From the NCBI GenBank assembly GCA_001820875.1, contig MHRF01000013.1, positions 73,992 to 137,991 on the forward strand: a stretch of DNA of 64,000 nucleotides, read 5' to 3'. The position numbers and the translations under genes are program-made. How positions within the stretch are numbered: the first letter of the stretch is position 1; each line of letters opens with the position of its first letter. The notes under the pieces are model-generated. The model did not search any database. It was not told the origin of the DNA and was given only the letters and a program-made list of their open reading frames with translations. The stretch comes from Candidatus Taylorbacteria bacterium RIFCSPHIGHO2_01_FULL_46_22b (GTDB lineage Bacteria; Patescibacteriota; Minisyncoccia; Phycocordibacterales; DSPV01). Below, one piece after another: positions 1,188 to 23,415 of this stretch.

Positions 1188-2687
1188 TTAGAGGATTGAG
1201 ACCAGTCCGTGATCTGCGTTTACTTCCACCGTCATGCCGTCTTTGAGCACTTTGGTTGCAATTTTGGTACCAATTACACAAGGCTTATTTAATTCGCGTG
1301 CAACAATTGCCGCATGCGAAGTCACCCCTCCCTCATCAGTTACAATCGCCGCCGCTTTTTTCATCGCAGGAACATAATCAGGTCGTGTCATAACCGCAAC
1401 CAAAATATCCCCTTCATTCACTTTATCAACTTCTTTCGCGCTCTTTATGATTTTCACCGTGCCCACCACCTTACCCATGCAAGCCGTCAAACCACGGAAA
1501 TCATTCACGTGTGATAAATCAGTGGTCTTGAGTATAGTTTCTTTCACCTGATCGGCTTCTTTACCGACAAGCACCTCATGCCCTTCTGTATCCCAAAAGA
1601 ATACGCAATTCTCTTTGCGTTTTTTAAAATCTTCACTAGAAGGAGTGATGTCAAAAATCTTTCCTACTTCGCGTGGACTCATGTATTTAATCAGCTCAAG
1701 TGATATGTTTGTACGTTTACCTATTTCAGATAGAATCAGCGACCCATAGTGCATGGTCCACAGCGTTGCTTTTTTACGATCATCCTGCCATTTGGTAAAG
1801 TCTTCCGAGACCTTGAGCAGGAACTCAAGCTCTTTATCCTGCTCCACCAGCGACCAATACTTCTTCTTCTCTTCAATATGTCGCGCGGGAGTTTCTTCAA
1901 TTTTCTTCAGTGTTACATTTAAATCCTCCGACAATGCAAGCAACTTTTCAAGTTCTGTATTGAAATGTTCGACTGAAAGCACATATGCATCAACATAATT
2001 ATTATGAATCCAGAAAAATTCCTGTTGATGTCTCTGGAGTAGTTTTGTTCTCTGTGCAGGATCTTTCCGAACCGCAAGCGCAATCTTAATGAGCGATACC
2101 TCTGCTTCGTTGATAAATGAAAGGTGGACTGGCGCAGTCAAAATCGAAAATAACTCATTGAGCCTCATGGTGTCTTTAAGAGGCGATGCGTCGTATAACT
2201 TTTTGATATGAGCCGCGACAATCTCGTCAGTCCCTAATGCAAACCCGTCTATGGTTGAACTTGAACTGTTTCGAGAAAGCACTGTCTCGACAAACTCATT
2301 GTGAAGTGTAATAAGTTCTTTGTCGGTAAGTTTTGCCAGATCAGTCTCTCCAATATGCTCGCACAGTGCATAAAAAGCTTTTTCATCTCCATCCCATTCT
2401 GCAATAAACTTTGTGCTATAAGAAATGTCGCCGCCACCATTTTTTATGACTGCTGTATATATTTTCTTGATATCTTCCATCTCCATATACCAATCTGCCT
2501 TGCCGTTTTCAAAAAAACAGTAGTGTACATCGAAATTCGTCCCTTTCTTCCTCTCAATATGAAAATCAATCTGTGCCTCGGCGATAAAATGGATAAAATA
2601 GGGCGACCCATCAAATCGCTGGTGATACCACTCTTTTCCCGTCCATTTGGACAACTCTTTTCGAGTCAACCCTTGTATATACTCCAT
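1188..2687 (-). CDS. Array paralog P1: helical N-domain (motifs FFWIHNNY, WQDDRKK) plus C-terminal PEP-utilizer mobile domain
   Basis: 499-aa ORF. The C-terminus reads GDILVAVMTRPDYVPAMKKAAAIVTDEGGVTSHAAIVARELNKPCVIGT, with the catalytic-His motif of PF00391-type swivel domains. Confidence 0.85.
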   Translation of the reverse strand: MEYIQGLTRKELSKWTGKEWYHQRFDGSPYFIHFIAEAQIDFHIERKKGTNFDVHYCFFENGKADWYMEMEDIKKIYTAVIKNGGGDISYSTKFIAEWDGDEKAFYALCEHIGETDLAKLTDKELITLHNEFVETVLSRNSSSSTIDGFALGTDEIVAAHIKKLYDASPLKDTMRLNELFSILTAPVHLSFINEAEVSLIKIALAVRKDPAQRTKLLQRHQQEFFWIHNNYVDAYVLSVEHFNTELEKLLALSEDLNVTLKKIEETPARHIEEKKKYWSLVEQDKELEFLLKVSEDFTKWQDDRKKATLWTMHYGSLILSEIGKRTNISLELIKYMSPREVGKIFDITPSSEDFKKRKENCVFFWDTEGHEVLVGKEADQVKETILKTTDLSHVNDFRGLTACMGKVVGTVKIIKSAKEVDKVNEGDILVAVMTRPDYVPAMKKAAAIVTDEGGVTSHAAIVARELNKPCVIGTKIATKVLKDGMTVEVNADHGLVSIL

Positions 2688-2695
2688 AAATAAAA

Positions 2696-4627
2696 TTATA
2701 GCATTTTCCTTACAACACCTCTCTCTGCATCAACCTCAATCCTATCGCCAGTTTTTAAAACTCGCGTGATATCCCGCACACCGATTATACAAGGCACATT
2801 GAGTTCTCTCGAAATAACCGCCGCATGACTGGTAACTCCACCTTGTTCTGTAACAATTGCTACTGCTTTCTTCATGATGGGCACAAACTCCGGAGTTGTT
2901 TGATTGGTTACCAAAATCTCTCCTTTCACAAAAGACTTCATGTCTTCAGCAGTACGTACAATATGAACGTGGCCTGTGGCGAATCCACGGCACGCGGGAA
3001 CCCCCTTCCATTCAACTTCTTTTTTATGTTCTCGTGCACCTGCTTCGAAAAAGCCCTGTGCTGTGGCACCCTCGGCAATAAAATATCCTTCAGGAGTTAC
3101 TGCGTAGAAAGTTCTTTCCTTTCTCTGTGCGATCAACTCGGCGACATCTCTTCCTTCAAGCAAGACTGCTTTTACTTCCTGAAAAATCAAGAAGGTAAGA
3201 TCTGATTTTGAATATGAAACCCGACGGGAGAGCTCTTCGAGAAAAAGATCGTAATAATGCATGCCTATATATGATCCCTTTTTGCGTTCATCTTTCCATT
3301 CTGCAAAAAGCCATGCGACTTTGATCAATTCTCGAGTAAAATTCGACAGGTTAATCTTTTCGAAGGTATCATCGCGCTTTTTCTTAGCTACCTTTCTACC
3401 TCTGTTTCTCTTCTCCATAATTTCTACAAACGAAGATTTTGACGCTCGTAGCTCTTCAGACTTTTTTTGCAGTTCAGAATAAAAGAAATCAATAGTCAGA
3501 ACTTCGGCAACAAAATAATTGTTGTGTATCCAGAAAAAAGACCGCGTATGAGCTTCTAATTTCTTATATAACCTCGGCTGCTCTGCCTGCATTGTCTCAA
3601 GCGACGGCAAGTCAGTTGGGTACACTTTCTCAATCGCAGTAGCAATTTCTATAAGTTTCCACTCTGCTTCTAATGTATATGAATCAATCAGGGGATTTGT
3701 CAGTGTGCGGACGATTTCTGGAACATCTTTGGATACAACGCCTTTAGCAACGAGTTCTTGGGAAATAACACTTTCAAGCCAATCAATCTCTCCAGTGGAC
3801 ATAAAAGTGTCCGCCATATATGCAACTGAACCGGCTAAAAGGTACCCGATGTGGAATTGTTCAAATAAATCACAGAGATCCTCATCTGAAAGCATCTTGA
3901 AATTTGTCTGGTCAATCTTTTCTCTGATTTCATCATAGGACTGCCAATCTTTCCGCCATCCAATTTGTATATTTAAAAAAGGAATGCTTCCTTCTTTCTT
4001 GATTTTATCGACAATCCAATCGCGAACTTGCTGTACACTGTCCCAATCTAGAAACCAATTCCCCTCATTTCCTTCTTGGAACCCGAAACAATATCCATAG
4101 TGAGGTGAAAACCGTTCTGAAAATGCATGGAGTTCACTTTCAGATGCAGCAAAAAGGGTAAAAAGCTTAGAATGGAAATTTTTATTAAAATCAGAACTCG
4201 TCTTCCGTACTAACTCAATCGGAAAATCAGAAAGTTTCTTTGCTAGAGGTTTAAATGTCTCCTGTTTTCCAATAACTTTTACTTCTATATTAGGAAAATG
4301 GGATTGCAAATCCTCTCGAAGTTCATGCTGATCATGCCCAATCGCAACAGCGTCAGGTTTGTGCTTCGCGAAAATTTCCCAACTTCCCTGCACTCGGTCA
4401 CCAATAACAACTTGATCGACAAGCTTAGCGGCGGCAAGTGCCGCCGCCCGCTCTTCCATGGTTAAATTCGGTATTCTCTTTTTGAGTGTCTTGACTGCTT
4501 CATCATGCGCAACAACTGCAATTAGATAATCTCCTAATTTCTTTGCTTCACGCAAAAAATAATGGTGCCCAATATGTAAACCATCAAATGTTCCAAACGC
4601 CATTACTTTTTTATTTTTCTTCGGCAC
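2696..4627 (-). CDS. Array paralog P2, three-domain fusion: N-terminal HxGH cytidylyltransferase-like nucleotidyltransferase, then the helical domain (FFWIHNNY, WKDERKK), then a C-terminal PEP-utilizer domain
   Basis: 643-aa ORF. The N-terminus has MAFGTFDGLHIGHHYF (HxGH motif of the cytidylyltransferase/FAD-synthetase-like fold). The C-terminus reads IVTEQGGVTSHAAVISRELNVPCIIG. The annotated start at 4627 is GTG; the first ATG is at 4603 (MAFGTFDG..), which is the more likely start. Confidence 0.8.
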   Translation of the reverse strand: MPKKNKKVMAFGTFDGLHIGHHYFLREAKKLGDYLIAVVAHDEAVKTLKKRIPNLTMEERAAALAAAKLVDQVVIGDRVQGSWEIFAKHKPDAVAIGHDQHELREDLQSHFPNIEVKVIGKQETFKPLAKKLSDFPIELVRKTSSDFNKNFHSKLFTLFAASESELHAFSERFSPHYGYCFGFQEGNEGNWFLDWDSVQQVRDWIVDKIKKEGSIPFLNIQIGWRKDWQSYDEIREKIDQTNFKMLSDEDLCDLFEQFHIGYLLAGSVAYMADTFMSTGEIDWLESVISQELVAKGVVSKDVPEIVRTLTNPLIDSYTLEAEWKLIEIATAIEKVYPTDLPSLETMQAEQPRLYKKLEAHTRSFFWIHNNYFVAEVLTIDFFYSELQKKSEELRASKSSFVEIMEKRNRGRKVAKKKRDDTFEKINLSNFTRELIKVAWLFAEWKDERKKGSYIGMHYYDLFLEELSRRVSYSKSDLTFLIFQEVKAVLLEGRDVAELIAQRKERTFYAVTPEGYFIAEGATAQGFFEAGAREHKKEVEWKGVPACRGFATGHVHIVRTAEDMKSFVKGEILVTNQTTPEFVPIMKKAVAIVTEQGGVTSHAAVISRELNVPCIIGVRDITRVLKTGDRIEVDAERGVVRKML

Positions 4628-6017
4628 GTTTCAAAATCGTTACCACTCCCTTCTCCGCGTCCACCTCCACCAAATCGCCGGTTTGTAGAATTTTTGTCGC
4701 AATTTGTGTCCCAATAACAGCGGGTACATTCAACTCTCGAGCCACAACCGCAGCATGACTGGTAATTCCTCCTTCATCAGTTACAATTGCCGCTGCTTTT
4801 GCACATAAATGGACAATCTGTGGACGTGTCATACCCGTTACCAAAATCTCTCCCTTCTGAAACGCACTTACTTGTTCATTGTAATCAGATGTGACAAAAC
4901 TGACGACACGAACACGGCCTATGACCTTTCCCTTATTTGCAACACTCCCTTTGAAGGTGCTGACAGCACTAAAATCTTCAGCTACCAGCTTTTTATATTT
5001 GTCTGCCTCTTCACCAGTAAGTAAAACAGCCCAACGATTATTTAAAATTGACACATATCCTGACTTACGGCGTCGAATTTCTTCCATATCAATTTTTTGT
5101 CCCGAGAAAAACGCAATCATTTCTTCTACAGTAGCAAACTCAAGATCAGGCTGTTTGCTTCGGAAAACTAATTCCTCAAGGATTTTCTTAAGATGATAGC
5201 GAAGATGCATGAAATGATACCTTGTCCAAAATCGCAAACAACCAAGTTCTCCAATAAGTCTCCCTAGATTCAAAATCTCCGGCGGAACTGGAATGTCAGG
5301 CGTCTTCACACCTTCTTTTACAAAAGAAAGAATCTTTTCTCTATAATGATCCGCATCAAATGGTTTCTCTCCTTCTATTTCATTAAACCATCCATATTGA
5401 GTCACAAATTTTTGGAGTAAAATATTCTGTGCATCAACAGAAAGAATCGACCAACGCTTGTATGCCTCTTCAATTTCTTTTTCTTCCTGTGCCCAAGGTA
5501 AATCTTCCGGCCAATAAGTTGAGGCGCGCAATAACTTGTCTTTTTCTTGGTACTTATCAAGAAGAGTTGTTATTTTCTCTTCAAGAGATTTGACGTGCTG
5601 CGGATTACTGATAAACATGCGGGCCAAGGTTTTTAGCATTTGATTGAAGAGTGTCTGCACATCCACAAGTAAAGCCAAGGTCTCTTTTTCTTTCCAAACT
5701 TGTTTCCATGCCCACTCTTCCATTTCCTTTGCTTCAGTAAACAGCGTCTTCCGTACATCGGTTAATAAACTTTTTATTCTTTCTGGATCCTCCCAGACTT
5801 TTCTGAAATACTCGCCAGCTTGATTCATTTCCTCAACGTCAAAATACGCCCGATTAGACATATCAGGAGAGACAAGATAAATCACATTCTTGTATTCAAA
5901 CCCTGCAAAATCAAAAAAAGTTTTAGCAAAAAATCCTATGTGGGCAGCGGTATAGTACGGTCGAACAGCACGAGTTTCAAACATTCGCTTATATATTCTT
6001 TTTGCGTTCTGTTCCAT
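4611..6017 (-). CDS. Array paralog P3 (helical domain + PEP-utilizer domain)
   Basis: 468-aa ORF. The C-terminus reads IVTDEGGITSHAAVVARELNVPAVIGT. Confidence 0.85.
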   Translation of the reverse strand: MEQNAKRIYKRMFETRAVRPYYTAAHIGFFAKTFFDFAGFEYKNVIYLVSPDMSNRAYFDVEEMNQAGEYFRKVWEDPERIKSLLTDVRKTLFTEAKEMEEWAWKQVWKEKETLALLVDVQTLFNQMLKTLARMFISNPQHVKSLEEKITTLLDKYQEKDKLLRASTYWPEDLPWAQEEKEIEEAYKRWSILSVDAQNILLQKFVTQYGWFNEIEGEKPFDADHYREKILSFVKEGVKTPDIPVPPEILNLGRLIGELGCLRFWTRYHFMHLRYHLKKILEELVFRSKQPDLEFATVEEMIAFFSGQKIDMEEIRRRKSGYVSILNNRWAVLLTGEEADKYKKLVAEDFSAVSTFKGSVANKGKVIGRVRVVSFVTSDYNEQVSAFQKGEILVTGMTRPQIVHLCAKAAAIVTDEGGITSHAAVVARELNVPAVIGTQIATKILQTGDLVEVDAEKGVVTILKRAEEK

Positions 6018-6113: not shown

Positions 6114-6599
6114 GTGAGGAACAAACTGAAAGGAAGTACCTTGAGCACTCCCCACAAAATCCTCTGTCTCTGCCTCGGAAATTCCGACCGAAGCCCAGTC
6201 ATGGCCGCCGTTCTGCACATGTATCTCACCAGTGCAGGCTACACTGACGTCATTGTCGAGAGCGCCGGAGTCGGTGATTACGCGAAAACAGGTGGCAAAC
6301 CTGCCCCATTTGGTGTCGCCGCCGCGAAATTCCTTGGACTTCACATCGGTGGCCACACACGTCGTCACGTTGAAACACTGAAGCTCGACGATTACGATCT
6401 CTTTGTCTGCGCCGCAGATGACGTTGCCCGAGAACTCCTCAAGTTCTGCGGCGATCGGAGCAGGATGTTCAATGCCAACGTAGCAAACCCCTTCCCAGTC
6501 CAGTTCCAACAGGACTACGAACCGTGCATGATCGCCATCCTTGGCGGCATGTACCGTGTCGTCGCCCGCTACTTCCCTCCCCAATCCTTCGAGATGTAG
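6114..6599 (+). CDS. Low-molecular-weight phosphotyrosine phosphatase / ArsC-family (CX5R) phosphatase-like protein
   Basis: P-loop motif ILCLCLGNSDRSPVMAA (C-x5-R-S) near the N-terminus. The gene is GC-richer than the flanking array. A more likely start is the TTG at 6151, preceded by AGGAAG. The overlapping minus ORF 6087..6584 lacks any motif. Confidence 0.6.
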   Translation: MRNKLKGSTLSTPHKILCLCLGNSDRSPVMAAVLHMYLTSAGYTDVIVESAGVGDYAKTGGKPAPFGVAAAKFLGLHIGGHTRRHVETLKLDDYDLFVCAADDVARELLKFCGDRSRMFNANVANPFPVQFQQDYEPCMIAILGGMYRVVARYFPPQSFEM

Positions 6600-6616
6600 C
6601 CGCCTCTTTCTTCATC

Positions 6617-6652: not shown

Positions 6653-6925
6653 GCCTAGCGAGTGAGCAACCTAAATTTCAAGGAGCAAAGCGACTATGAA
6701 ATTGGAAGCACTCTTGTGGTACGGAGAGAAAAAGTATCTTCGTTTTCTCTCCCGAACGAGCGACCTAGATTTCTTACGAGCATAGCGAATGTAGAAATCG
6801 GAAGTACTCTCGTGGTGCGACGGCAACAAAGGGTTTAATATCTCGCCCGTGGGGGGGTGAAAGCATTCGCGAAGCGAATGCTTTTTGTGTCTAGGATTTG
6901 ACCTAGGGTTAATACCCTTTATTTC
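6651..6925. repeat. Intergenic repeat element, copy A. It is two tandem ~70-nt subunits, then a terminal hairpin AAAGGGTTTAATA/CCCTTT that is split by a ~70-nt insert.
   Basis: TTGCCTAGCGAGTGAGCAACCTAAATTTC...GTGGTGCGACGGCAACAAAGGGTTTAATA is nearly identical to 57638..57836 and partially matches 55046..55200. Confidence 0.65.
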
Positions 6926-8025
6926 CTCTCCAAGATTTTCACCGTTCCTTTCTCGCCATCAACTTCAACAATATATCCATCTTTTAGTACATGAGTTGCG
7001 TACTTGAGTGCAACCACACAAGGAATCCCAAACTCACGCGAGACTACCGCAGCATGGGAAAGTAATCCTCCTTGATTAGCGAGAATCGCAGACGCTTTTT
7101 CACACGCAGGCATAAATTCGGGTGAAGTTGTTTCGGCAACCAAAATATCTCCTTTTTCCATTCTCTCAAATTCTTTTGCCAGCGAATCAAATGTCTTTGG
7201 ATCAGAAACAATAACCTTAACCCGTCCAATAACTTTTCCTTTGCTTGCAGGAATACCCTTTAGAATCTGAATTTCAGAGGGAATTTCTTCTCCCGCCTGT
7301 TTTAATAACGTAAGAATATCGTCTTTGACTTGCGCTCCGGCATGGACCGTAACTGTATTACCTTCCCCAATAATCACCCTCGCTTCTTTCCTATCTCTGG
7401 TCACTTGCGAATCAACCTTCACTCCATCAAAAAGTTTGTAGATATCATTGACCCCGTAGTATTTGAGGTCATGTATACTCACACCAAACTGCTTTTCAAG
7501 CTTGCGAGACATCTGGCGGAAATATGAGTCCTCGCCAAACCAAGGATAGTTAAAAATCTCCACTCTCGAACGCTCTTTGAGTTTGTAATTCCTCATCAGA
7601 TTTTCTTGCATCACCGGATTATTTACGGAGAGTTTATATGCCTTATCGGTATAGAAAAACTCGGTTCGGTAAAAGAACGATGTCGCCAAGCACCAATGTC
7701 CAAGAAATTTCTCAACATTTTGTTTGGTAAGTATTTCGGGTTTCTTTATCTCCGAATCAAATATTTCTAAGAGCTTGTTGAGATATTCAACATGGGCATT
7801 GAAATATTCGTTAAACCGTTTAGTGTCGGCAAAAAACTCTGCGCCATCATCAAGCTGTGCTTCAAGTACTTTTTTAGGAAGCCAGCAGTACCAACTGTCA
7901 TCAATAGCAGTTTCCAGTGCATAGAAACCTTTATAAAAGCCCATCCATGCATCACTCATCAAAAAATCAATCCCCTCAAAGTGGAACAATCGTTGATACT
8001 GTTTTGATTCGTCTATGAATTTCAT
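6919..8025 (-). CDS. Array paralog P4 (shorter helical domain + PEP-utilizer domain)
   Basis: 368-aa ORF. The C-terminus reads ILANQGGLLSHAAVVSREFGIPCVVAL. Confidence 0.8.
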   Translation of the reverse strand: MKFIDESKQYQRLFHFEGIDFLMSDAWMGFYKGFYALETAIDDSWYCWLPKKVLEAQLDDGAEFFADTKRFNEYFNAHVEYLNKLLEIFDSEIKKPEILTKQNVEKFLGHWCLATSFFYRTEFFYTDKAYKLSVNNPVMQENLMRNYKLKERSRVEIFNYPWFGEDSYFRQMSRKLEKQFGVSIHDLKYYGVNDIYKLFDGVKVDSQVTRDRKEARVIIGEGNTVTVHAGAQVKDDILTLLKQAGEEIPSEIQILKGIPASKGKVIGRVKVIVSDPKTFDSLAKEFERMEKGDILVAETTSPEFMPACEKASAILANQGGLLSHAAVVSREFGIPCVVALKYATHVLKDGYIVEVDGEKGTVKILERK

Positions 8026-9455
8026 CTCTGTAATATTCTCACAATTCCCCTCTCGGCGTCCACCTCAACTAGGTCACCGTCCTTCAAAATCTGTGTAGCA
8101 ATTTTACAACCCACTAAACAGGGGATTTTAAACTCACGGGAAATAATGGCGGCATGACACGCCATGCCTCCCTCGTCAGTAAGAATTGCTCCCACTTTAT
8201 TCACCAACATAGTCATATTTGGGTTAGTCATTCCAGTAACCAAAACATGTTTCTTGTTTATCTTGCCCGCAATTTTATGAATTTCACTTGGGGTATCTAC
8301 TTTTACTAAAACAACTGTTCCTTGAAACTTCCCTTTATGTGCAATTGTTCCCTTGAACTCCTGTAATTCTTGGGAGGGCTGACTTGAATCAAGTATCTGT
8401 ATCTTTTTCTGTTCCGCCTCAACACCACTGACAAAACTTACGCCGTCGGCTTTATAGTGAAGCAGATATGCCCTTTTTCTATTCTGCAATTCTTGTCCTG
8501 AAAGCCAAACACTCGACTGTAGTAACCGAATCACATCTTCAACTCTTGAGAACATAACAAACTCTCTATGGGTTACTCCTGCTTTATCGGCAAGGTGTGA
8601 GAAGAACAGCATTAAAAAATAATGGGCTCCACCCCAACACGCTTTTAGTGTTAAGCGACAGAGAGAAGACTGCTGGATAAAATAAGTAATGTCTTCTGCT
8701 TCCTTAGATTTCAACAGAGTTAATATCTCTTGTTGTTCCTTTTTAAGTAACACCTTCCCATGCTTATAGTTTTCTACTTCCTTCTTTGCTTTCTTGAGCT
8801 CTTCTGGTGTAAGTCTATATTTAATTATCTTTGCACCTTCTGCTTCAGATTCAACATTAAAAAGCATGAGCGGATATTTCAAGGCGTGTTCTTGTATGCT
8901 CTCGTCAGTTGGATTCTTTGACAATAAAAGGACATCACATTTCTCTTGATACAGAAGATCGTCTTCTTTTGGTGTGGTAAGTGTAATATATGGTTGCAAA
9001 TAATCATCTCTATATTTCTCTTTCACAATTTCTGCGAGTTGCTCTTCCACAGGAGCCATTACTTCTTCTCGGGAACACATAAAATATGCGAGTACTTTGC
9101 GTTCAACAACACGATATTCTTCAAAATATTTTAAGAGTTCGTCATTAGAAAGCGAGGGATTGAAACTTAATCGTATGTTTTTGATAACATTCCAATACTG
9201 GTGAGCAGCTTCCTTTGCATCAGAAATAGTTTTTGAAGCAAAGAGAGGATTAAGAAATTTCTTTCCATCTTCATATACCACACTCTCTACATCATCCACA
9301 GGAAAGTAACATTCGAGGTAACCCTTGAGACTCCACATAATTTGTTCAGAAAGAACGTTTCCCGTTATATCCCGATGGAAAATATACCGCTCCGTCTGAA
9401 TATCATTTTTCAGTAACGGTTGTTCTCCTGTCCATGCTAGTTGAAATTTCTTCAT
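8022..9455 (-). CDS. Array paralog P5
   Basis: 477-aa ORF. The C-terminus reads ILTDEGGMACHAAIISREFKIPCLVG. It overlaps P4 by 4 nt. Confidence 0.85.
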   Translation of the reverse strand: MKKFQLAWTGEQPLLKNDIQTERYIFHRDITGNVLSEQIMWSLKGYLECYFPVDDVESVVYEDGKKFLNPLFASKTISDAKEAAHQYWNVIKNIRLSFNPSLSNDELLKYFEEYRVVERKVLAYFMCSREEVMAPVEEQLAEIVKEKYRDDYLQPYITLTTPKEDDLLYQEKCDVLLLSKNPTDESIQEHALKYPLMLFNVESEAEGAKIIKYRLTPEELKKAKKEVENYKHGKVLLKKEQQEILTLLKSKEAEDITYFIQQSSLCRLTLKACWGGAHYFLMLFFSHLADKAGVTHREFVMFSRVEDVIRLLQSSVWLSGQELQNRKRAYLLHYKADGVSFVSGVEAEQKKIQILDSSQPSQELQEFKGTIAHKGKFQGTVVLVKVDTPSEIHKIAGKINKKHVLVTGMTNPNMTMLVNKVGAILTDEGGMACHAAIISREFKIPCLVGCKIATQILKDGDLVEVDAERGIVRILQR

Positions 9456-15135: not shown

Positions 15136-15476
15136 ATAACTTTTGCATCTACAATTTCCTTTATTCTCTGCCGAATTTTGTCATCTTGAATATACATCTC
15201 TCTATTACCCAAAGATGGTTTGATATTGATAAGCGCCGTATATTCCAATCTCTCCTCTTTGGGTTTATTAAAGACAATATTGAAACCCCAAATATTCACC
15301 GCACTTGAGCCTGCATCAGTGAGTACGGTTGCCGCATCAATATGATATTCGCCTCCAAGCGCGACAACACCGTTTGCAATATCAATAGCTCCTTTTACCA
15401 TATCATCATAAAACTCCTTGCCGATTTCTTTGGCTTCGTCAATCGATATGGTATCTTTTATAATTTTTATATTCAC
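15132..15476 (-). CDS. Hypothetical small protein (114 aa), translationally coupled to P9
   Basis: Its start overlaps the P9 stop (ATGA at 15473..15476). No recognisable motif. Confidence 0.45.
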   Translation of the reverse strand: MNIKIIKDTISIDEAKEIGKEFYDDMVKGAIDIANGVVALGGEYHIDAATVLTDAGSSAVNIWGFNIVFNKPKEERLEYTALINIKPSLGNREMYIQDDKIRQRIKEIVDAKVI

Positions 15477-16960
15477 TCGGTTCTTTTTAGAACTTTAACT
15501 ATACCATTATTGGCATCAACTTCTACACTATCTCCATCCTTGAGAACTTTTGTTGCGATCTTGGTCGAAATTACACAGGGTTTTTTCATTTCGCGAGCAA
15601 CAATCGCCGCATGACAGAGGATACCTCCCTCGTCAGTGATAAACGCAGATGCTTTTTCCATTGCCGCAATATAAGACGGGAACGTCATCACGGTTACCAA
15701 AATATCTCCTCGCTTAACCTTATCAATATCATGCGGGGTCAAAACCACTTTTACGATACCCTGCACTTTGCCCGCAAACCCAACCTGACCTGATATCTCT
15801 TTAATATCTTTCAGATCTTCGTTTATAAAGTCTTGAATCTGTGCAAATTCATCTGCATCTTTCCCTTGGAGAATCAGCAATCCTCCTACATCTCGGAAAA
15901 GTGCCCAAGATTTTTTCCGCTCATCAATGCGTATCTTACTCAACAACTTTCCAACCCTCAAAGATTCCGAGATTTCTTCGGGTGATAGGTAAAGAATTTC
16001 TGCATAGCTGATCGATAGACGCTTAGCCGCCTCTTCAAGAAAAGGTATGGTATGAAAGAGAGCTTGATTAATGACATCTGTCCTATAAGTGCGCAGATAT
16101 ACATATTCTTTCACCATGTAAATCATTTTCCGATCGGTTTCCTCTACAGAAAACTTTTTGATGAATTCTTCAGCTAATTTTTCCACCTCAGCGGGCTTAT
16201 GTTCTAACATCTTTATTTTTTCTGGAATTTCCCCTATATCAAAGAGATGTTCCATTCTTTCCATAATATCTTTGGAACTAGGAGGCTTGCCTATCAACCA
16301 ACGTAGGGATAACCAGCTAAACCGTTTCAAATGGTCTTGAATACCCTTTAATAGCAATTTGTTTTCTCCTGTAATATCTTTTTTATCTCCTATAGATGAG
16401 AGTATCTTTAATAGCGAGAGTTGCTCAAACTGACCCTCATTAAGTTTGATTGGTTCAGACAAAACCTTCTTCCATTCCAAGATGTCACGGGAATCAGTGA
16501 CATACTTTTTGATAATCCTTGAGAGCTCACTGTCCAGAAAAGCGTCAAGCGATAGTACATACAGAAGAAAAACTGAAAATGCCCGTTGTCTGTCAGAAAT
16601 TTCCATGAGTACACCTGCGATATGCGTATGCGATTTCTGGCTTACGTCACTTGCATAAAGAGTGTTCGTATAAGCAAGGAGTTTGTTCCCCTCTTTCTCA
16701 CATATATCGCCCATATGCCACAGAAACGCTGGTCCCTCCTCTCTTAATCTCTTTAACTGTACTTCAGCAAAAGCTTCTCTACTCCCTTTACCAAAATAAT
16801 TGTCATCTTTGTAACTAGCGTAGATGTCATCAATAGGTACCGATAACACTTTATCTAGATATTTCTTGCAGGTATTAAAACAAGATGACGAGAGTGAAAA
16901 AGGCACATATGTCCTATTCACTATAAAATCCCATTCTCTTTTTTTCTTCCACGATTCCAT
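15473..16960 (-). CDS. Array paralog P9
   Basis: 495-aa ORF. The C-terminus reads FITDEGGILCHAAIVAREMKKPCVIST. Confidence 0.85.
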   Translation of the reverse strand: MESWKKKREWDFIVNRTYVPFSLSSSCFNTCKKYLDKVLSVPIDDIYASYKDDNYFGKGSREAFAEVQLKRLREEGPAFLWHMGDICEKEGNKLLAYTNTLYASDVSQKSHTHIAGVLMEISDRQRAFSVFLLYVLSLDAFLDSELSRIIKKYVTDSRDILEWKKVLSEPIKLNEGQFEQLSLLKILSSIGDKKDITGENKLLLKGIQDHLKRFSWLSLRWLIGKPPSSKDIMERMEHLFDIGEIPEKIKMLEHKPAEVEKLAEEFIKKFSVEETDRKMIYMVKEYVYLRTYRTDVINQALFHTIPFLEEAAKRLSISYAEILYLSPEEISESLRVGKLLSKIRIDERKKSWALFRDVGGLLILQGKDADEFAQIQDFINEDLKDIKEISGQVGFAGKVQGIVKVVLTPHDIDKVKRGDILVTVMTFPSYIAAMEKASAFITDEGGILCHAAIVAREMKKPCVISTKIATKVLKDGDSVEVDANNGIVKVLKRTE

Positions 16961-16970
16961 CGGATATTTC

Positions 16971-18020
16971 TTACGCTCGTTTTAAGATTTTTACAATTCC
17001 TGTATTTGCATCCACCTCAATTTCATCTCCGTCTTTCAAAGCTTTGGTAGCAATTTTGGTTGCAACAATGCAGGGTTTCTGTAATTCACGTGCCATAATC
17101 GCCGCATGACACACCACACCGCCTTCATCAGTTACAAATGCTGCTGCTCGTTTCATCGCTGGTAGAAAATCCGGCAGTGTCATGGGCGCCACAATAATAT
17201 CCCCTGATTTTATTTTGTCTATCTCGCGAACACCATATAAAACTTTTGCAACACCTCGAACAATCCCTTTGAACGCTGATTGCCCCTTAAACTCTTTGAG
17301 ATCTGCTTTCACATTAATCTCCTCAAATTGGATGTTAAATTTCTCTTCAACAAAAGAGCGTGACGCACCTACATACAACTCATTGTTTGTAAAGAAATAA
17401 CCTGAAGCTCTCTGTCTCAAGATTTCCAGAGAAGGCGGCGTATTATTCTCAATCTCTTTGATTTGCAAAACCGCAACTAAATCACCGAGTGCCGGATATA
17501 ATTTTTCAAGTGATTTTCTAATCGTCGCTTCCGATCCAGGCACAAAACGTTCCGTTTCCTTGCGAAGCTTCATGAGACTCGAAAATTGTTCACCCAGCTT
17601 GTCTTTATACAGATCAAAAAGCGAGGACTCCCACCCCCACCAGACTGCTTCAAACCATGTCCACATGGATTCATATGCTTGTAGAAACTCTACAAGCTCT
17701 TTGTGCGACAAAATGGGTTCGTTTTCGTATATATTTTTTATCTTCTCAAATACTTTCCGAAATGGAATCTCAATGTAAGAAAAACTACCAGTGCGTAGAG
17801 CTTCATCAATAAGCAACTGTTCAACCCACCGAATACCTTGCTGGTTGTAGAAACCTTGGATTACCTTTCCCGTATACTCAAAAATAATATAGGGTAAAAA
17901 AGGTTGTTGTTTTGTTGTCCAAATTTTAGGGTTGACTGCTTCAGCTCTCCACCACACCTCGATTGTGGCGAGTGTAAAATCTCTGGAGAAATACTTCGTG
18001 TATACCGGCCTCTTATCCAT
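16971..18020 (-). CDS. Array paralog P10 (short, 349 aa)
   Basis: The C-terminus reads FVTDEGGVVCHAAIMARELQKPCIVAT. Confidence 0.8.
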   Translation of the reverse strand: MDKRPVYTKYFSRDFTLATIEVWWRAEAVNPKIWTTKQQPFLPYIIFEYTGKVIQGFYNQQGIRWVEQLLIDEALRTGSFSYIEIPFRKVFEKIKNIYENEPILSHKELVEFLQAYESMWTWFEAVWWGWESSLFDLYKDKLGEQFSSLMKLRKETERFVPGSEATIRKSLEKLYPALGDLVAVLQIKEIENNTPPSLEILRQRASGYFFTNNELYVGASRSFVEEKFNIQFEEINVKADLKEFKGQSAFKGIVRGVAKVLYGVREIDKIKSGDIIVAPMTLPDFLPAMKRAAAFVTDEGGVVCHAAIMARELQKPCIVATKIATKALKDGDEIEVDANTGIVKILKRA

Positions 18021-19536
18021 TTGCTTTCTTGATTATTTTTACAACCCCCTTGTCCGCATCCACCTCAATGAGATCGCCGTCTTTTAGGACTTGGGTTGCT
18101 ACTTTTGTACCAACAATACAGGGCTTGCCAAATTCTCGAGACATTATGGCCGCATGAGAAAGCAATCCTCCTTCAACCGTTACAATAGCCCCTGCTCGTT
18201 TCATTGCAGGCACATAATCAGGACCAGTCATAGAACAGACTAGTATCTCACCCTCCTTCAGTGAGTACGAATCTTTTGGTGAAGATGCAATTTTTACTTT
18301 TCCTATCGCAACCCCACGCGAAGCGCTTTGTCCCTTAAATTCCATAATTCCAGCCTTAGAAACACTGAAAGAGTTTTCTATCCATTCACTCAATGCTCGC
18401 CCTTCATCTCCACTTGCAATCATCGACTCACCCGAAAGCAGAGCGAAGGTAAAAGCGTCACCGCGTTCCTTCAATTCAACTGGATTGATTTGTGCTTTTC
18501 CCTGCAACGCTCGTAGTATTTCTTCTGAAGTCAGGTGCTGTAATTCACCTGTGGTAATACTAAGACGTGATGCGACAAGTTCAAGTAAGGGTTTGAACTG
18601 TGCCCCCGCTCTCATCGCCTCATCTACACCGGCGGTTAGCACCCAGCCCAACCTTCGTGCCCACGCAATGTCTTTTATGAGTGTGGAATCACTCTGGAGC
18701 ACTGTGAGTAATTCCTCTGCTTTCTCTCTATTTTTCTTATGCATTTCTTGCTGAAGAGTAAAATCACGATGTGCCCCTTTCATAAGAGCATTCTTAATTT
18801 TTTCGATAAGTTCTTTCTTATCAAGCGGAGCAAGAGGCATGACAAAGTACGTCTTCATCCAACTATATTCATCAAGGTACGTGTTGAGCTTTTGTTGAAA
18901 AATACTATTGCTTTCAAAATCTTTCTCTTTTTCAGCGATACCCACCAGTTCAAAAAAATATCCTTGCTCTTCTTGAAAAGCTGCTTTTTTGACAGGAAAA
19001 ATCAAGAGTGTTAGAGCATCCGTCAAATCGATAATCTTTTCAACCTCATTCTTATGCGAAATGAGTCCTGACTTAACACGGTCAGTAAGCATGTTGTATT
19101 CTGAAATATACCAAGGTATGTAGAACCATGGAGTAATACGTATGAATGCTGCGTCGAATCGAATCCACAGTTCACCTAACTCCGTGTCAGTGATGTGAGT
19201 TCTCTGTATTTCTTTGTTAAAAGAATTCATCTTTTGTCGAAAGAATTGCATCTGTCCGACAGAGTTTCTCAACACATATTCAAGATAGTCTTCATTAAGA
19301 AGAGCTTCCCGAAGTTTCTGGAGCAAGGGAGATCTTTGAGAAAGTTTTGTATAACCATGACTTGAATTTGTAAAGAGATAATCGTAACGAAACACCCCAA
19401 ACTTTAAATCTTCTGGAAAATATTGATAGAGTCCTCGGGTGTGAAAATCAGACAGAAGTATGCAGTTCCCATTTCTTTGCTGAAATTCAAAATCCCATTC
19501 GCTTAGATTAAGGTCAGATTTTGTAAGTTTTTTCAT
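18013..19536 (-). CDS. Array paralog P11
   Basis: 507-aa ORF. The C-terminus reads IVTVEGGLLSHAAIMSREFGKPCIVG. It overlaps P10 by 8 nt. Confidence 0.85.
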   Translation of the reverse strand: MKKLTKSDLNLSEWDFEFQQRNGNCILLSDFHTRGLYQYFPEDLKFGVFRYDYLFTNSSHGYTKLSQRSPLLQKLREALLNEDYLEYVLRNSVGQMQFFRQKMNSFNKEIQRTHITDTELGELWIRFDAAFIRITPWFYIPWYISEYNMLTDRVKSGLISHKNEVEKIIDLTDALTLLIFPVKKAAFQEEQGYFFELVGIAEKEKDFESNSIFQQKLNTYLDEYSWMKTYFVMPLAPLDKKELIEKIKNALMKGAHRDFTLQQEMHKKNREKAEELLTVLQSDSTLIKDIAWARRLGWVLTAGVDEAMRAGAQFKPLLELVASRLSITTGELQHLTSEEILRALQGKAQINPVELKERGDAFTFALLSGESMIASGDEGRALSEWIENSFSVSKAGIMEFKGQSASRGVAIGKVKIASSPKDSYSLKEGEILVCSMTGPDYVPAMKRAGAIVTVEGGLLSHAAIMSREFGKPCIVGTKVATQVLKDGDLIEVDADKGVVKIIKKANG

Positions 19537-20894
19537 TTTTTAAGGATTTTAACAACCCCCTTGTCCGCATCCACCTCAATGAGATCGCCATCTTTGAGGA
19601 CTTTTGTGGCATTTTTTGTTCCCATAACACAAGGGATATTAAATTCACGACTCACGATGGCGGCATGACACGACAGCCCACCCTCATCTGTGACAATAGC
19701 GGCTGATTTTTTAAGAATGACCATGTAATCAGGGGTGGTCATGTTTGTCACTAGAATGTCACCGTGGTTTAACTTTCCGAAATCCTTATGACCCATAATC
19801 ACTTTGGCAATACCGGTAACTTTTCCCTTGCAAGCAATCTGACCTTTAATTTCCTTGATATCCTCCTGTATAGGACTTTCAAAATATGCGCGAATTTTCT
19901 GGTAATCCTTTCCTGTAAGAAGAATCTCCTCACTGTTCAAAAAACCGTGGGCAAATCCCTCTCGTCTTTCCTGTATTACTTTTTTGTCTGGTAACGCTTC
20001 ATCCGCAAAACCTGCGAGGACCTCCTGATAGGTAAGTGTATAAAATGATGGCAAATCTGCTTTCAATTTTTGTGCAAGCAACTGCGCCAAAGGTCTGAAG
20101 GCAAACCATATCTGCTGTGAAGATTCCTTGATTCTGTTTCGGCAGAAAATACCAACTTGAAGCCCGGTAAGTAAAAAGTGCTTTTCGGGTGAAGGCTTAA
20201 GTTCGTTTGAACCGACTTCGGACTTGAGCTCTGCACGTAAGTCCTCTTCAGTATAATTTTCTATAAGATTATAAGACGTTTTTATCCACGCAAATTTTTC
20301 AAGATGAGATTGTATTTCCTTATCTGTAAGTTTCCCCTGCATTTCCAATTTCTTCAAATTCCGTATTGATTCATTAATATAGTCTACATCGAGCTTTTTG
20401 TAAGAATACGAATATTCAAGAATGTCCGGTCGCTCCTTTGATAGCTCTTTCTCGCAAAAATTGGTAAGTGGCATTGCAAACACGTAGAAACCCTGAATTG
20501 TTTTCAAAACCGAGATGTAACGCTTGAAGAGCGATATAAGATCAGGGAGACTACTGTCCTCAAGAAACTTCACCTCATGAATAAAGCGATTATTTTCTTC
20601 TGCAAACTTATCAAATTTTTTGACAACAGTTAGAGGCCATTCGATGTCCTTGGAAAAAGCCTCTCGAAATTTATCAGAAAAAAGTTGAGTATCTTTTAAA
20701 TCGATAAGATACTTATCCTGAACCCATAATGTGTTCACATACTTCAAGATCACACCGGAAGCGATTTCCTGTGGTTGCATTAGCGCTTCCATTACTATGG
20801 CCTTCGATTGAAGAAAACCGAAACGCGTTACCGCAGGATCCCACTCTACAGTCTTTATTTTATTGAATATTTCCTCTGATAACTTTTCAATCAT
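19533..20894 (-). CDS. Array paralog P12
   Basis: 453-aa ORF. The C-terminus reads IVTDEGGLSCHAAIVSREFNIPCVMG. It overlaps P11 by 4 nt. Confidence 0.85.
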   Translation of the reverse strand: MIEKLSEEIFNKIKTVEWDPAVTRFGFLQSKAIVMEALMQPQEIASGVILKYVNTLWVQDKYLIDLKDTQLFSDKFREAFSKDIEWPLTVVKKFDKFAEENNRFIHEVKFLEDSSLPDLISLFKRYISVLKTIQGFYVFAMPLTNFCEKELSKERPDILEYSYSYKKLDVDYINESIRNLKKLEMQGKLTDKEIQSHLEKFAWIKTSYNLIENYTEEDLRAELKSEVGSNELKPSPEKHFLLTGLQVGIFCRNRIKESSQQIWFAFRPLAQLLAQKLKADLPSFYTLTYQEVLAGFADEALPDKKVIQERREGFAHGFLNSEEILLTGKDYQKIRAYFESPIQEDIKEIKGQIACKGKVTGIAKVIMGHKDFGKLNHGDILVTNMTTPDYMVILKKSAAIVTDEGGLSCHAAIVSREFNIPCVMGTKNATKVLKDGDLIEVDADKGVVKILKK

Positions 20895-20899
20895 ATTAG

Positions 20900-22357
20900 T
20901 TACTTAACTATTTTCACTACCCCTGTATCCGCATTTACTTCTACTATATCGCCATCCTTTAACACATGCGTTGCGATTTTTGTTCCAACCACACAAGGTT
21001 TTCTCATCTCTCGAGCCATAATCGCCGCATGACAGGTAATTCCACCCTCGTCCGTCACGAAAGCCGAGGCTTTCTCAAGAGCAGGCAGCAGGTTTGATGT
21101 GGTCATCGTAGTTACCAATATATCGCCTCGTTCGAATTTTTCGACATCTTTGCCAGTTTTTATGATTTTCACCGTCCCGCGAGCGCACCCTGCATACCCA
21201 GTCTTTCCTGAAAATTCAGTTACGGCGTCCTTTGTCATGTCCAGAAACGGATGGCTCTGCACAAATGATACCACTTCGGCTCCCTCAAGAATCCTATACT
21301 CATCTCCTTGAACGTGATATATCAAAAAATTCTCCAGACGGTTCTTAACATGAGAAACGTAATCAAATTCTCCCTTAAGTGCAGTGGACACTTCATCCGC
21401 TGACAGACAGATAAGACCTTCGTATGAGATGTTCAGCAATTGAGCTATCTTGTCGAGCACAGGCCGGACAATCGCGGCTGATTCATGCACAAAATCCCCG
21501 CGCTGGGTTCTCAAATAAACTACTTTTCGAATAATATCGACAACGTGTTTGTCTTGAACACTAAAACTCGAAATTGCTTTCTCAATCTTTTGTTCTCTTT
21601 CTTTTCGGTGAGCGAGTCGAATCTCAAGTTCATGAAGTGCTTTGGTTTTATTGATTCCTTCCAACCGTTTCAAGACGGTTTCTTTTGTCCACGCATCACC
21701 GATAAAATACCGCACGCCCAGCCACCCGTATTTCTGTGCATGATTCTCTGCGACAATTGGCAATTCTTCCTCTCGTATACCTGCAAGACGAAGGAAATCA
21801 TCTTGTTCATATTCTGCCGTAGTCAAACGATCCGCGACAGAGATGGTGTCATATAACTTTTGAGCTTCTTCTTTGTTTGCAGTATATTTCTTTACCAATT
21901 CCTCGGCAAATTCAACGAGCGGACGCTCAAAAAAAGTTATCTGATAAAATACTGTGTAATGAGACAGCGCTCGAGAGTAAACAAGGATTGCATCTGCAAG
22001 AACTTTTTTGTCTGCTGATTTGTCTCCAACATATTTTCTAAATAAGAGCGAGACTTCTCGTAATTTGTCTCCCGCTTGAAGACATTGCTCTATAAGACTA
22101 TTGATATATTGATTATTCGATACATCAAATTTATTTTTTACTTCCGCTTCTATTTCGAGCAGGTCACCTGCGAATTGATAAAAATAATGATTGACCTGCA
22201 ACCAACGCACAATAGTTTCCAATCCCAAAAGACTTCTGGATAATTCCCTATTTTGCATTCCCGAAATAATGGCGCTCGAGCCGAATGGCGGCTCTGCCCG
22301 TTCGCCAAAATACGTCAGGTCGCTTTCCTGTATACTTTCTAGGTCTATTTTCTTCAT
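20900..22357 (-). CDS. Array paralog P13
   Basis: 485-aa ORF. The C-terminus reads FVTDEGGITCHAAIMAREMRKPCVVG. Confidence 0.85.
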   Translation of the reverse strand: MKKIDLESIQESDLTYFGERAEPPFGSSAIISGMQNRELSRSLLGLETIVRWLQVNHYFYQFAGDLLEIEAEVKNKFDVSNNQYINSLIEQCLQAGDKLREVSLLFRKYVGDKSADKKVLADAILVYSRALSHYTVFYQITFFERPLVEFAEELVKKYTANKEEAQKLYDTISVADRLTTAEYEQDDFLRLAGIREEELPIVAENHAQKYGWLGVRYFIGDAWTKETVLKRLEGINKTKALHELEIRLAHRKEREQKIEKAISSFSVQDKHVVDIIRKVVYLRTQRGDFVHESAAIVRPVLDKIAQLLNISYEGLICLSADEVSTALKGEFDYVSHVKNRLENFLIYHVQGDEYRILEGAEVVSFVQSHPFLDMTKDAVTEFSGKTGYAGCARGTVKIIKTGKDVEKFERGDILVTTMTTSNLLPALEKASAFVTDEGGITCHAAIMAREMRKPCVVGTKIATHVLKDGDIVEVNADTGVVKIVK

Positions 22358-23415
22358 CTTATGATTCTCACGATTCCTTTATCTGCATCCACTTCCACTG
22401 TGTCGCCATCCTTGAGAATTTTGGTGGCAACACCAGTACCAATCACACAAGGTTTCTTCATCTCGCGCGCGACAATTGCGGCATGAGAGAGAATGCCGCC
22501 CGCGTCCGTTACAAATGCTGCGGCTTTTTCCATAAGAGGCAAGAATTCTGGACGGGTCATCCCAGTCACCAAAATATCTCCTTTTTCAAATGGAGCGTTG
22601 TATTTAAACGGATCAATAACCAACCGCACTATTCCACGAACATTTCCCTTATACGCAATTTGTCCTTTAATTTCTTTAATTCCAACTTTTGGCAAAACAA
22701 TCTTTTCCATTTCTGATACCTGCAAACCAGAAAAAAGTAGTGACTTCCCAGACTCAAAAAATTGAATTGATTGTCCAAATCTCTCTTCCAGAACACTCTT
22801 ATCTGGCAAAAAAGCACTTTTAAAGTACGCTCGAAATTCTTCTTTTGTTGTAGATAATACCAATTCCTTGGCAATTCCCTTTTCTTTACCAACTTGTTCT
22901 GCAATTCTCTCCATGAAATTTTCCTGTTCTCTAAATACAGGTTCTGAATACAAGCGTGCTTCTTCAAATATCGGCAAATACTTTTCCAAACCTTCAGGAG
23001 ACAAGTAATCTACAATGTATTTAACACTTAGATGCGGGATGTAGTAGTCTGCAATATTTTTCCAAAATTCCTCGTAGATTTTCGCATCTAGTTTTTTGTC
23101 TTCATTCTGTTTAAAAAATAACAGGACTCGCTCCGCATGTTCTTTCAACGAATCGGCGAGCTTTTTTGCGTTATGCGAGTCTCCATTAATCTGTGTAACT
23201 AATCGATCTCCTAAATTGTCTTTTTCTGCTTGGCTGACCCAGCAATCCGATATGCCTTTCCGATGAGTGTACACAACAAGTCCGTAGGCTGAATCTCCTG
23301 ATATACGATTCCCATCTGTCCATTCCCCTCCAAATTGTGAGCAGGAATGCAAACTCCACTTCCCCGACCATACTTTCACCCAGTCAGTGTGTTTTTTAAA
23401 AGAAGAAAGATCCAT
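22354..23415 (-). CDS. Array paralog P14 (short, 353 aa)
   Basis: The C-terminus reads FVTDAGGILSHAAIVAREMKKPCVIG. It overlaps P13 by 4 nt, and its start lies 4 nt after the stop of the ATP-grasp gene. Confidence 0.8.
   Translation of the reverse strand: MDLSSFKKHTDWVKVWSGKWSLHSCSQFGGEWTDGNRISGDSAYGLVVYTHRKGISDCWVSQAEKDNLGDRLVTQINGDSHNAKKLADSLKEHAERVLLFFKQNEDKKLDAKIYEEFWKNIADYYIPHLSVKYIVDYLSPEGLEKYLPIFEEARLYSEPVFREQENFMERIAEQVGKEKGIAKELVLSTTKEEFRAYFKSAFLPDKSVLEERFGQSIQFFESGKSLLFSGLQVSEMEKIVLPKVGIKEIKGQIAYKGNVRGIVRLVIDPFKYNAPFEKGDILVTGMTRPEFLPLMEKAAAFVTDAGGILSHAAIVAREMKKPCVIGTGVATKILKDGDTVEVDADKGIVRIIR

Follow-up and report, generated by a model that had tools for sequence, protein, structure and literature searches.

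A split, multi-module array related to rifampin phosphotransferase in a Candidatus Taylorbacteria genome

Introduction

Rifampin phosphotransferase (RPH), as seen in the structures of RPH-Lm (PDB 5FBS, 5FBT, 5FBU and 5HV1), combines in a single 867-aa chain an ATP-grasp domain, a helical substrate-binding domain and a C-terminal swivel domain bearing the catalytic His. Two of its residues, R666 and E667, make contacts both with the phosphate being transferred and with the catalytic His, and the R666A and E667A substitutions abolish rifampin phosphorylation; their hydrogen-bond network also includes K670, and M673 is a drug-contacting residue (PMC4844700). Here we analyse a 64,000-nt stretch (the window) of contig MHRF01000013.1 from Candidatus Taylorbacteria bacterium RIFCSPHIGHO2_01_FULL_46_22b, in which 14 consecutive minus-strand open reading frames (ORFs) at 1188–23415, named G1–G14 (P1–P14 in a preliminary description of this DNA), encode paralogous proteins with such a swivel at the C-terminus and a diverse region, the N-domain, ahead of it, next to a standalone ATP-grasp gene.

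RPH homologues with a split architecture are also known. HpeHI, CreHI, PpsAB and AcvAB consist of an ATP-grasp subunit of ~35–40 kDa and a second subunit with the substrate domain and the swivel (PMC12167813). These HpeHI-type two-component dikinases follow a His-dependent ping-pong mechanism; in HpeHI, CreHI and PpsAB the swivel His is pyrophosphorylated with the help of the ATP-grasp, the gamma-phosphate is then lost, and the beta-phosphate moves on to a hydroxyl bound in the RPH-like domain, and HpeH on its own can move phosphate from one substrate to another (PMC12167813). In the HpeHI pathway the kinase has a phosphatase gene at its side (PMC12624787). The prodigiosin ligases PigC, RedH and HapC have the RPH-like three-domain architecture in a single chain, with phosphoryl transfer driving a condensation, and phosphoenolpyruvate (PEP) synthase and pyruvate phosphate dikinase (PPDK) share the swivelling-His logic but carry a PEP/pyruvate-binding TIM barrel C-terminal to the swivel.

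The locus described here resembles the two-component dikinases in having its ATP-grasp and its substrate/swivel parts as separate adjacent genes, with phosphatase genes in attendance. It differs from them in that one ATP-grasp gene stands beside at least 16 modules of 349–643 aa, instead of one beside a single subunit of ~600–640 aa, and in its setting, since its hosts are bacteria of the Candidate Phyla Radiation (CPR) and DPANN archaea and it has no aromatic-catabolic context. We consider it probable, with room for serious doubt, that the region encodes a split, RPH-type small-molecule dikinase in which one shared ATP-grasp charges many substrate-specific modules.

Results

One ATP-grasp gene beside at least 16 swivel-bearing modules

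In Pfam searches, all 14 paralogs matched PF00391, the phosphohistidine swivel of PEP-utilizing enzymes, at their C-terminus (E 1e-22 to 1e-27). Upstream of the swivel no Pfam match was obtained in any of them, except for a cytidylyltransferase-like domain at the N-terminus of G2; an AnfG_VnfG match in G7 (E 6.5e-5) fell under its gathering score and was dismissed. The array forms three blocks, within which start and stop codons overlap or lie at most 10 nt apart, and the two gaps between blocks each hold one plus-strand phosphatase gene. The span 1188–23415 given in the preliminary description does contain the 14 paralogs, but the array goes on from coordinate 1188 up to the window edge and outside it. 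Contig L086, which overlaps the window with 1 mismatch in 12,165 nt and comes from the same population, carries in order the complete G0 (the 15th paralog, cut by the window start), a 16th paralog and, on the other strand, a second gene for an LMWPc phosphatase.

At the other end of the array, 4 nt separate the end of the ATP-grasp gene from the start of G14. Its product matches PF01326 (PPDK_N, E 4e-98), a domain found in no paralog, and is the sole ATP-grasp in the window, giving one ATP-grasp to at least 16 modules. It aligns end to end with RPH residues 5–316 (E 6e-65), is 40% identical to RPH 1–320, and retains RPH K22 and R117, with T136 replaced by Ser.

By sequence, the ATP-grasp (E 2e-69) and the swivel (E 3e-30) are most similar to PEP synthase and PPDK, and on the ATP-grasp protein the PEP synthase models score 326–339 bits against 290 bits for the RPH model NF041857. 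The swivels, too, have a PEP synthase-like Thr-Ser/Cys-His, instead of the Met-x-His of RPH, and relatives are labelled PEP-utilizing enzyme or phosphoenolpyruvate synthase in their sources. These genes might on that account be taken for split PEP synthase or PPDK isoforms that interconvert pyruvate and PEP. We regard this as very improbable, and the domain content already contradicts it: the PEP/pyruvate-binding TIM barrel (PF02896) gave no Pfam match in any of the 14 paralogs, and what they have instead is an RPH-like domain N-terminal to the swivel, whose fold is like that of RPH and unlike those of PEP synthase and PPDK (see below). Moreover, matches to the PEP synthase models are restricted to the ATP-grasp and the swivel, with 93–130 bits for the modules, and the cut-offs of the equivalogs TIGR01418 and NF005057 (740 and 598 bits respectively) are reached neither by the modules nor by the ATP-grasp protein. 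The NCBIfam models of PigC and RedH likewise find the ATP-grasp, with E 1e-73, and also the swivels, at scores far below their cut-offs, with short matches or none elsewhere, and PRK08296-type models (~600 aa), which we take to represent PpsA/HpeH-like subunits, match the window paralogs in the swivel only.

The N-terminal regions are homologous

In an all-against-all BLASTP comparison, the N-terminal regions of G1, G2, G6, G7, G8, G9, G11, G12 and G13 were linked to one another with E-values of 1e-3 to 4e-24. A hidden Markov model (HMM) built from these nine regions and 380 homologous segments from outside the window, always leaving out the sequences under test, further matched G3 (8e-11), G5 (2e-19), G14 (1e-9), G0 (3e-19) and G4 (1e-5, over its last ~70 aa only), with shuffled controls at 8 bits or less; the N-terminal region of G10 was not detected by this HMM. 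The common N-terminal scaffold postulated in the preliminary description is therefore borne out by alignment and leave-out HMMs for 13 of the 14 paralogs plus G0.

Every motif string that had been quoted for individual paralogs is present. The aromatic-Trp motif (motif 1, [FYW][FGSA]W[IVLMF]) occurs in 10 of the 14 paralogs, 175–204 aa before the start of PF00391, and was confirmed as a feature of most of them; 2000 composition-preserving shuffles gave an expectation of 0.1 paralogs, for a regular expression set after the data had been seen. G3, overlooked earlier, has it as well, as do the truncated G0 and the 16th paralog (Table 1), and it is missing from G4, G5, G10 and G14. A multiple alignment with MAFFT stacked the WTWFEAVWW string of G10 under motif 1, an assignment that we rejected, since hhalign places this string at G1 134–145. 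The basic motif (motif 2), with a regular expression likewise set after seeing the data, occurs in 7 of 14 paralogs (0.003 expected from shuffles) and is degenerate in G11, G5 and G14; for both motifs the excess over the shuffles is very large. Motif 2 does lie downstream of motif 1 as had been described, but at a distance of 65–81 aa and not 100–120; a spacing of ~120 aa is that between motif 2 and the swivel, as it starts 120–127 aa before PF00391. We also identified a third motif, L-[TS]-x-P-x-x-x-[ST]-F (G1 183–191; L 84%, P 79%, S/T 81%). Among 301 family members less than 60% identical to one another, the motif residues are the best-conserved columns, with R304 (91%) the best-conserved residue of motif 2, followed by K305 (79%) and D302 (69%), W226 at 86% and P186 at 79%; R357 reaches 96%, and G375 is a nearly invariant Gly among the paralogs (G1 numbering throughout).

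The opposite possibility, that the N-terminal regions are unrelated folds and the motifs chance matches, was the outcome named beforehand as fatal to the common-scaffold proposal. Pairwise identities of merely 12–22%, the failure of the leave-out HMM to find G10 and the misplaced G10 Trp cluster in the MAFFT alignment could all be cited in its favour. We nevertheless give it practically no credence, given pairwise E-values down to 4e-24, detection of 13 of 14 paralogs and G0 by HMMs that had not seen them, motif counts of 10 and 7 against shuffle expectations of 0.1 and 0.003, and the conservation of the motif residues in 301 relatives; only the first ~150 aa of G10 are excepted.

The N-domain is the counterpart of the RPH substrate-binding domain

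An AlphaFold2 model of G1, computed with 65 relatives, had a pLDDT of 93.8 and a pTM of 0.90. The top Foldseek matches of this model were six RPH entries (E 2e-13 to 2e-11), with query-normalised TM-scores of 0.52–0.58 for the four wild-type and 0.40–0.42 for the two G527Y-mutant structures, and no more than 0.20 for all other entries. Consistent with this, a broad N-domain profile aligned by hhalign with RPH 315–766, both without the swivel, at a probability of 96.1% (E 2.8e-9; 272 columns, RPH 429–745), and the G1 family aligned with three RPH sequences, swivel included, at 98.7% over G1 262–499. With the narrow G1-family profile, G1 1–296 against RPH 315–661 gave no significant alignment (probability 0.2%). 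An HMM search of the PDB with the 14 N-terminal regions returned RPH, weakly (E 0.17), as the only natural protein, phmmer with G1 against the PDB found swivel matches only, and NCBIfam models of the RPH type reached 70–150 residues upstream of the swivel in G2, G6, G8, G9, G11 and G13. Three independent lines of evidence for G1, Foldseek and hhalign among them, thus support the earlier suggestion that the N-domain is the counterpart of the helical substrate-binding domain of RPH. It is shorter (~395 aa, or ~240 aa in the short forms, against ~440 aa), identities to RPH are 13–18%, and the modules score 53–83 bits on NF041857, below the curated cut-offs (999 for NF041857 and 1700 for NF000283); there is no sign of rifamycin as a substrate. 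The G10 model (pLDDT 92) aligned with RPH over 172 residues, namely the swivel and ~65 further residues. In precomputed annotation, PF27448 is assigned to P0122–P0192, fragments of RPH ~647–735, and to no G1 relative; newer Pfam releases may thus cover the C-terminal part of the N-domain partly, and for RPH only.

The motifs of G1 could be placed on RPH by profile alignment. For motif 2, HMMER and hhalign agree in pairing F297, W300, Q301, D302, K305 and T308 with RPH F662, Y665, R666, E667, K670 and M673 respectively, so that the acid and the Lys of RPH E667 and K670 appear to be kept in G1-type paralogs as D302 and K305. In the R666 column, Arg is present in G9, G13, G12, G3, G5, G10 and G0, Gln in G1, G6 and G7, Lys in G2 (and in other family members) and Ile in G8, and G1, G6, G7, G2 and G8 have a further Arg one helical turn later (R304). 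Motif 1 aligns by hhalign with RPH Y579-G580-M581-R582...E586. For the third motif, a shift of two residues onto a shared Pro gives the likely register P186 = P519 and S190 = T523; T523 hydrogen-bonds E667 in RPH.

Old subfamilies with separately conserved residues

Diversification is confined to the part upstream of the swivel, as had been proposed, although this part makes up ~80% of each protein and not two-thirds: averaged over pairs, identity amounts to 53% in the swivel and to 12–22% in every upstream segment. The N-terminal regions of each paralog match those of its own orthologs in other genomes with E-values of 1e-70 to 1e-165, against 1e-24 or weaker among the window paralogs themselves. 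At identical fourfold-degenerate residues of the swivel, third-codon positions were 30% identical, compared with 26% expected by chance. Because synonymous sites are saturated even there, the duplications must be old, and swivel conservation reflects selection on the protein and not gene conversion. For the same reason dN/dS between paralogs could not be estimated, and the one near-identical contig shows a single-nucleotide difference in 12 kb.

Each of the G1 and G10 families is marked by invariant residues of its own (in G1 15–30, 55–68 and 143–154; in G10 21–65 and 122–128). In G1 these include the block S143–D154, which directly follows the residues aligning with the RPH rifampin contacts L478 and F479, and in G10 an invariant Trp cluster maps to this position as well. 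This pattern fits subfamily-specific residues that would line a substrate cleft, with modest confidence for any one column, and a different ligand for each paralog is consistent with the data. The short forms G4, G10 and G14 lack the segment corresponding to ~G1 158–313, which holds the third motif and the motif 1 region. They are not decaying copies, since relatives of similar length exist for G10 (333–404 aa, nearly all ~333–350 aa, 39–61% identity) and G4 (358 aa).

Full-length relatives of G1 number in the hundreds in CPR bacteria and DPANN archaea, at 40–67% identity. Many of them have an N-terminal XRE-type helix-turn-helix (among P0067, P0070, P0073, P0079, P0083, P0095, P0268 and P0210), and in one relative with two modules these are separated by a receiver domain of the response-regulator type, a hint that some modules may serve in regulation or sensing. 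When relatives extended at the N-terminus were scanned with Pfam, the fusions found were to helix-turn-helix, receiver and PPDK_N domains, and none was to another enzymatic domain.

Such fusions raise the question of whether the modules at large could be regulatory or protein-directed phosphocarriers or sensors, like Enzyme I of the PEP-dependent phosphotransferase system, to whose swivel theirs is homologous. The LMWPc and His_Phos_1 families, to which the phosphatases in the array gaps belong, include phosphoprotein phosphatases, which would suit this idea. We hold it to be improbable all the same: among the genes of the array we saw none for an HPr-like or other acceptor, the homologue of the N-domain in RPH binds a small molecule, RPH phosphotransfer residues appear to be kept, and in every characterised protein that has this domain the substrates phosphorylated are small molecules (PMC4844700, PMC12167813).

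Arrays and single-ORF fusions in other genomes

A search with the N-domain profile, for which the Pfam copy searched holds no model, recovered 6040 cluster representatives (50% identity) at E ≤1e-3, and 4153 at ≤1e-10, concentrated in CPR and DPANN organisms; many of them hold 2–5 tandem copies. Local HMM annotation of fetched loci revealed arrays of 8–10 modules in Woesearchaeota, Nealsonbacteria, Falkowbacteria and a metagenome-assembled genome (L007). Within the stretch fetched, L007 and a five-module locus of Buchananbacteria (L023) have a single standalone ATP-grasp gene. In DPANN and CPR bins we also found single ORFs that fuse one ATP-grasp to two modules (L014 384–4319, 1311 aa), to four (L033 7127–13111, 1994 aa) and to nine (L024 6506–17791, 3761 aa). 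These fusions directly support one ATP-grasp serving several modules. Phosphatase genes recur as well, a His_Phos_1 family gene adjoining the array in both L001 and L002 and a HAD phosphatase gene lying inside that of L001.

Our literature search found no description of this CPR/DPANN N-domain family, its arrays or its mega-fusions. RPH and the two-component dikinases are already known; the family, the multi-module arrays and the mega-fusions are new as far as the literature searched goes.

Proposed mechanism and substrate class

In the mechanism that we propose, the single ATP-grasp protein would bind ATP, and the swivel of each of the at least 16 modules would dock on it, take up the beta-phosphate and swing back to its own N-domain, which, as a compact homologue of the RPH rifampin-binding domain, would pass the phosphate to a hydroxyl of a small molecule. 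Motif 2 would form the phosphotransfer site, D302 (RPH E667) positioning the His and the basic residues at 301, 304 and 305 (RPH R666, K670) holding the phosphate, and motif 1 and the third motif (RPH P519...T523) would be scaffold elements around that site. In RPH, the R666A and E667A mutants lose this transfer but keep His charging. The N-domains would have split long ago into subfamilies, presumably with a specific acceptor for each, and we suggest that the need of every module to fit the one ATP-grasp has kept the swivel conserved.

As to the acceptors, we lean towards the salvage or activation of metabolites over the inactivation of drugs, because of the cytidylyltransferase fusion in G2 and the phosphatase genes embedded in the array. 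The closest solved relatives of the G2 fusion domain are the ethanolamine-phosphate (1.5e-18) and glycerol-3-phosphate (2.8e-10) cytidylyltransferases, enzymes whose substrates are phospho-alcohols, and an RfaE domain II-like protein (3.6e-17), with choline-phosphate cytidylyltransferases also among them, and the union of a kinase with a nucleotidyltransferase would make biochemical sense. The fusion is present in two assemblies and may be lineage-specific.

The same mechanism could instead serve a detoxification or resistance battery, each module phosphorylating a different antibiotic or toxin as RPH does. RPH is indeed the only structural homologue of the N-domain, models of the RPH type extend deepest into it, and a large and variable number of paralogs is typical of defence-like families. 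However, subfamilies that remain 40–67% identical across CPR and DPANN and keep invariant polar blocks look more like housekeeping than an arms race, the modules stay far from the RPH equivalog cut-off (53–83 bits compared with 999), and PADLOC gave no matches. The fusion of G2 to a biosynthetic cytidylyltransferase and the embedded phosphatases also suit metabolism better, and we judge a resistance role unlikely, though less so than the other alternatives weighed above.

Several points tell against a shared-ATP-grasp dikinase acting on metabolites. Sharing of the ATP-grasp is deduced from gene counts in 64 kb and from the fusions elsewhere, and the AMP + Pi + phospho-acceptor chemistry would apply to any module by analogy with relatives. 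The RPH profile comprised only three sequences, from a plasmid collection, the first ~80 residues of G1 show no sequence alignment with RPH, and the residue equivalences come from profile alignment rather than superposition. In G1-type paralogs, moreover, the essential R666 of RPH is replaced by Gln and the best-conserved Arg, R304, sits at RPH P669, so that the catalytic geometry would differ in detail from that of RPH. The modules with a degenerate motif 2 (G11, G5 and G14) and those without the middle subdomain (G4, G10 and G14) may be catalytically unlike the others. Finally, the closest G2 orthologs in our sample (493–528 aa) appear without the cytidylyltransferase domain, which makes the hint that it provides on substrate class that of one gene.

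Gene map and genomic surroundings

The features of the array are collected in Table 1. For G6, the mechanically delimited ORF (9452–11032) overlaps G7 by 94 nt, and the start is probably the ATG at 10942 (MTKEE) instead of that at 11032, given the ATGA overlap with the G7 stop codon and an N-terminus that resembles those of other paralogs. A 359-aa ORF at 11003–12082 on the plus strand, antisense to G7, has a Ser/Arg-rich, low-complexity translation and is in all likelihood spurious, a shadow ORF.

Three tRNA genes, for Pro-CGG, Ala-CGC and Ala-UGC, lie a short way upstream of the ATP-grasp gene at 24578–24721 and 25327–25401, both on the plus strand, and a gene for a bacterial PH-domain protein is found nearby at 24754–25275, on the strand opposite to the array (+). 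A D-Ala-D-Ala ligase gene and a sigma-70 gene are also recorded in the gene content of the locus and, together with the names given to the closest relatives, indicate a Patescibacteria (CPR) bacterium. Pyrimidine-biosynthesis genes, namely those for dihydroorotate dehydrogenase and an aspartate/ornithine carbamoyltransferase-like protein, occur near arrays in the window (31257–32372, minus strand), in L001 (4223–5329) and in L086 (14557–15501, where an OTCace_N gene follows the second LMWPc gene); this proximity may be coincidence. Throughout window positions 1–64000 long ORFs are nearly all on the minus strand, a strong strand bias, and GC skew is negative in every 2-kb bin, the cumulative skew falling steadily to −3.9.

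Table 1. Coordinates and characteristics of the modules, their motifs and the associated genes (window positions unless another contig is named; aa positions refer to the protein in question).
Feature	Position	Strand	Length (aa)	Characteristics
G0, 15th paralog	1..1186	-	431 (in full on L086)	Cut by window start; FAWVKVRD, YYRTLRTD, swivel
16th paralog	within L086 10980-13850 (span also holds G0)		491	Motif 1 YAWSEMGY
G1 (P1)	1188..2687	-	499	N-domain aa 1-395, swivel aa 396-499; reference paralog
G1 motif 1 FFWIHNNY	1995..2018	-		aa 224-231; loop after helix 210-224; aligns with RPH Y579-E586 (KYGMRCAGE)
G1 motif 2 WQDDRKK	1770..1790	-		aa 300-306, within long helix 285-326
G1 third motif L-T-A-P-V-H-L-S-F	2115..2141	-		aa 183-191; aligns with RPH 514-523
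G1 R357	1617..1619	-		Invariant in 14/14 paralogs; 96% family-wide; aligns with RPH R728
G1 His458	1314..1316	-		Swivel phospho-carrier histidine (GGVTSH); equivalent His in all paralogs
G2 (P2)	2696..4627	-	643	Cytidylyltransferase-like domain, N-domain and swivel
G2 nucleotidyltransferase domain	4253..4606	-		aa 8-125; HxGH motif
G3	4611..6017	-	468	Divergent; motif 1 YGWFNEIE; leave-out HMM E 8e-11
LMWPc, low-molecular-weight phosphatase	6114..6599	+		C-X5-R motif CLGNSDRS; first array gap
G4	6919..8025	-	368	Short form; aa 162-238 (~G1 308-383) and swivel demonstrably homologous
G5	8022..9455	-	477	Homologous over ~G1 59-385 (E 2e-19); neither motif string
G6 (P6)	9452..10942	-	496	From probable start; YFWVRTNY, IQDRRKE
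G7 (P7)	10939..12348	-	469	WGWMRNSY, WQDERKK
G8 (P8)	12341..13831	-	496	FFWFKSDFY, WIDYRKRG
His_Phos_1, histidine-phosphatase superfamily	14102..14776	+		Second array gap
G9 (P9)	15473..16960	-	495	FSWLSLRW, YLRTYRTD; RPH NCBIfam model aligns from aa 274
G10	16971..18020	-	349	Short form
G11 (P11)	18013..19536	-	507	YSWMKTYF; motif 2 position degenerate (VLTAGVD)
G12 (P12)	19533..20894	-	453	FAWIKTSY; FCRNRIKE at motif 2 position
G13 (P13)	20900..22357	-	485	YGWLGVRY, YLRTQRGD
G14	22354..23415	-	353	Short form; matches ~G1 51-157 and 314-381; without middle subdomain
Standalone ATP-grasp (PPDK_N)	23420..24370	-	316	Heads array

Discussion

The N-domain family comprises at least 6040 clusters, concentrated in CPR and DPANN, groups whose metabolism has been deduced largely from what they lack, and most sources name its genes merely as PEP-utilizing enzyme or phosphoenolpyruvate synthase. 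If our interpretation is true, metabolic reconstructions of CPR and DPANN miss a large repertoire of kinases. The mapping of the motifs onto RPH R666/E667/K670, its YGMR loop and P519...T523 provides concrete residues for mutagenesis, and the cytidylyltransferase fusion of G2 points to amino-alcohols, polyols or sugars as the first class of acceptors to consider. The modular layout also offers candidate swappable kinase specificity domains for engineering. More tentatively, and with somewhat less than even confidence, we suggest that CPR and DPANN organisms may have a one-to-many dikinase platform, in which one ATP-grasp charging station with evolvable plug-in modules would take the place, in these reduced genomes, of many conventional kinases that salvage or activate host-derived metabolites. 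The bacterium hosting the array described here is probably equipped with a set of kinases that between them act on a range of small molecules.

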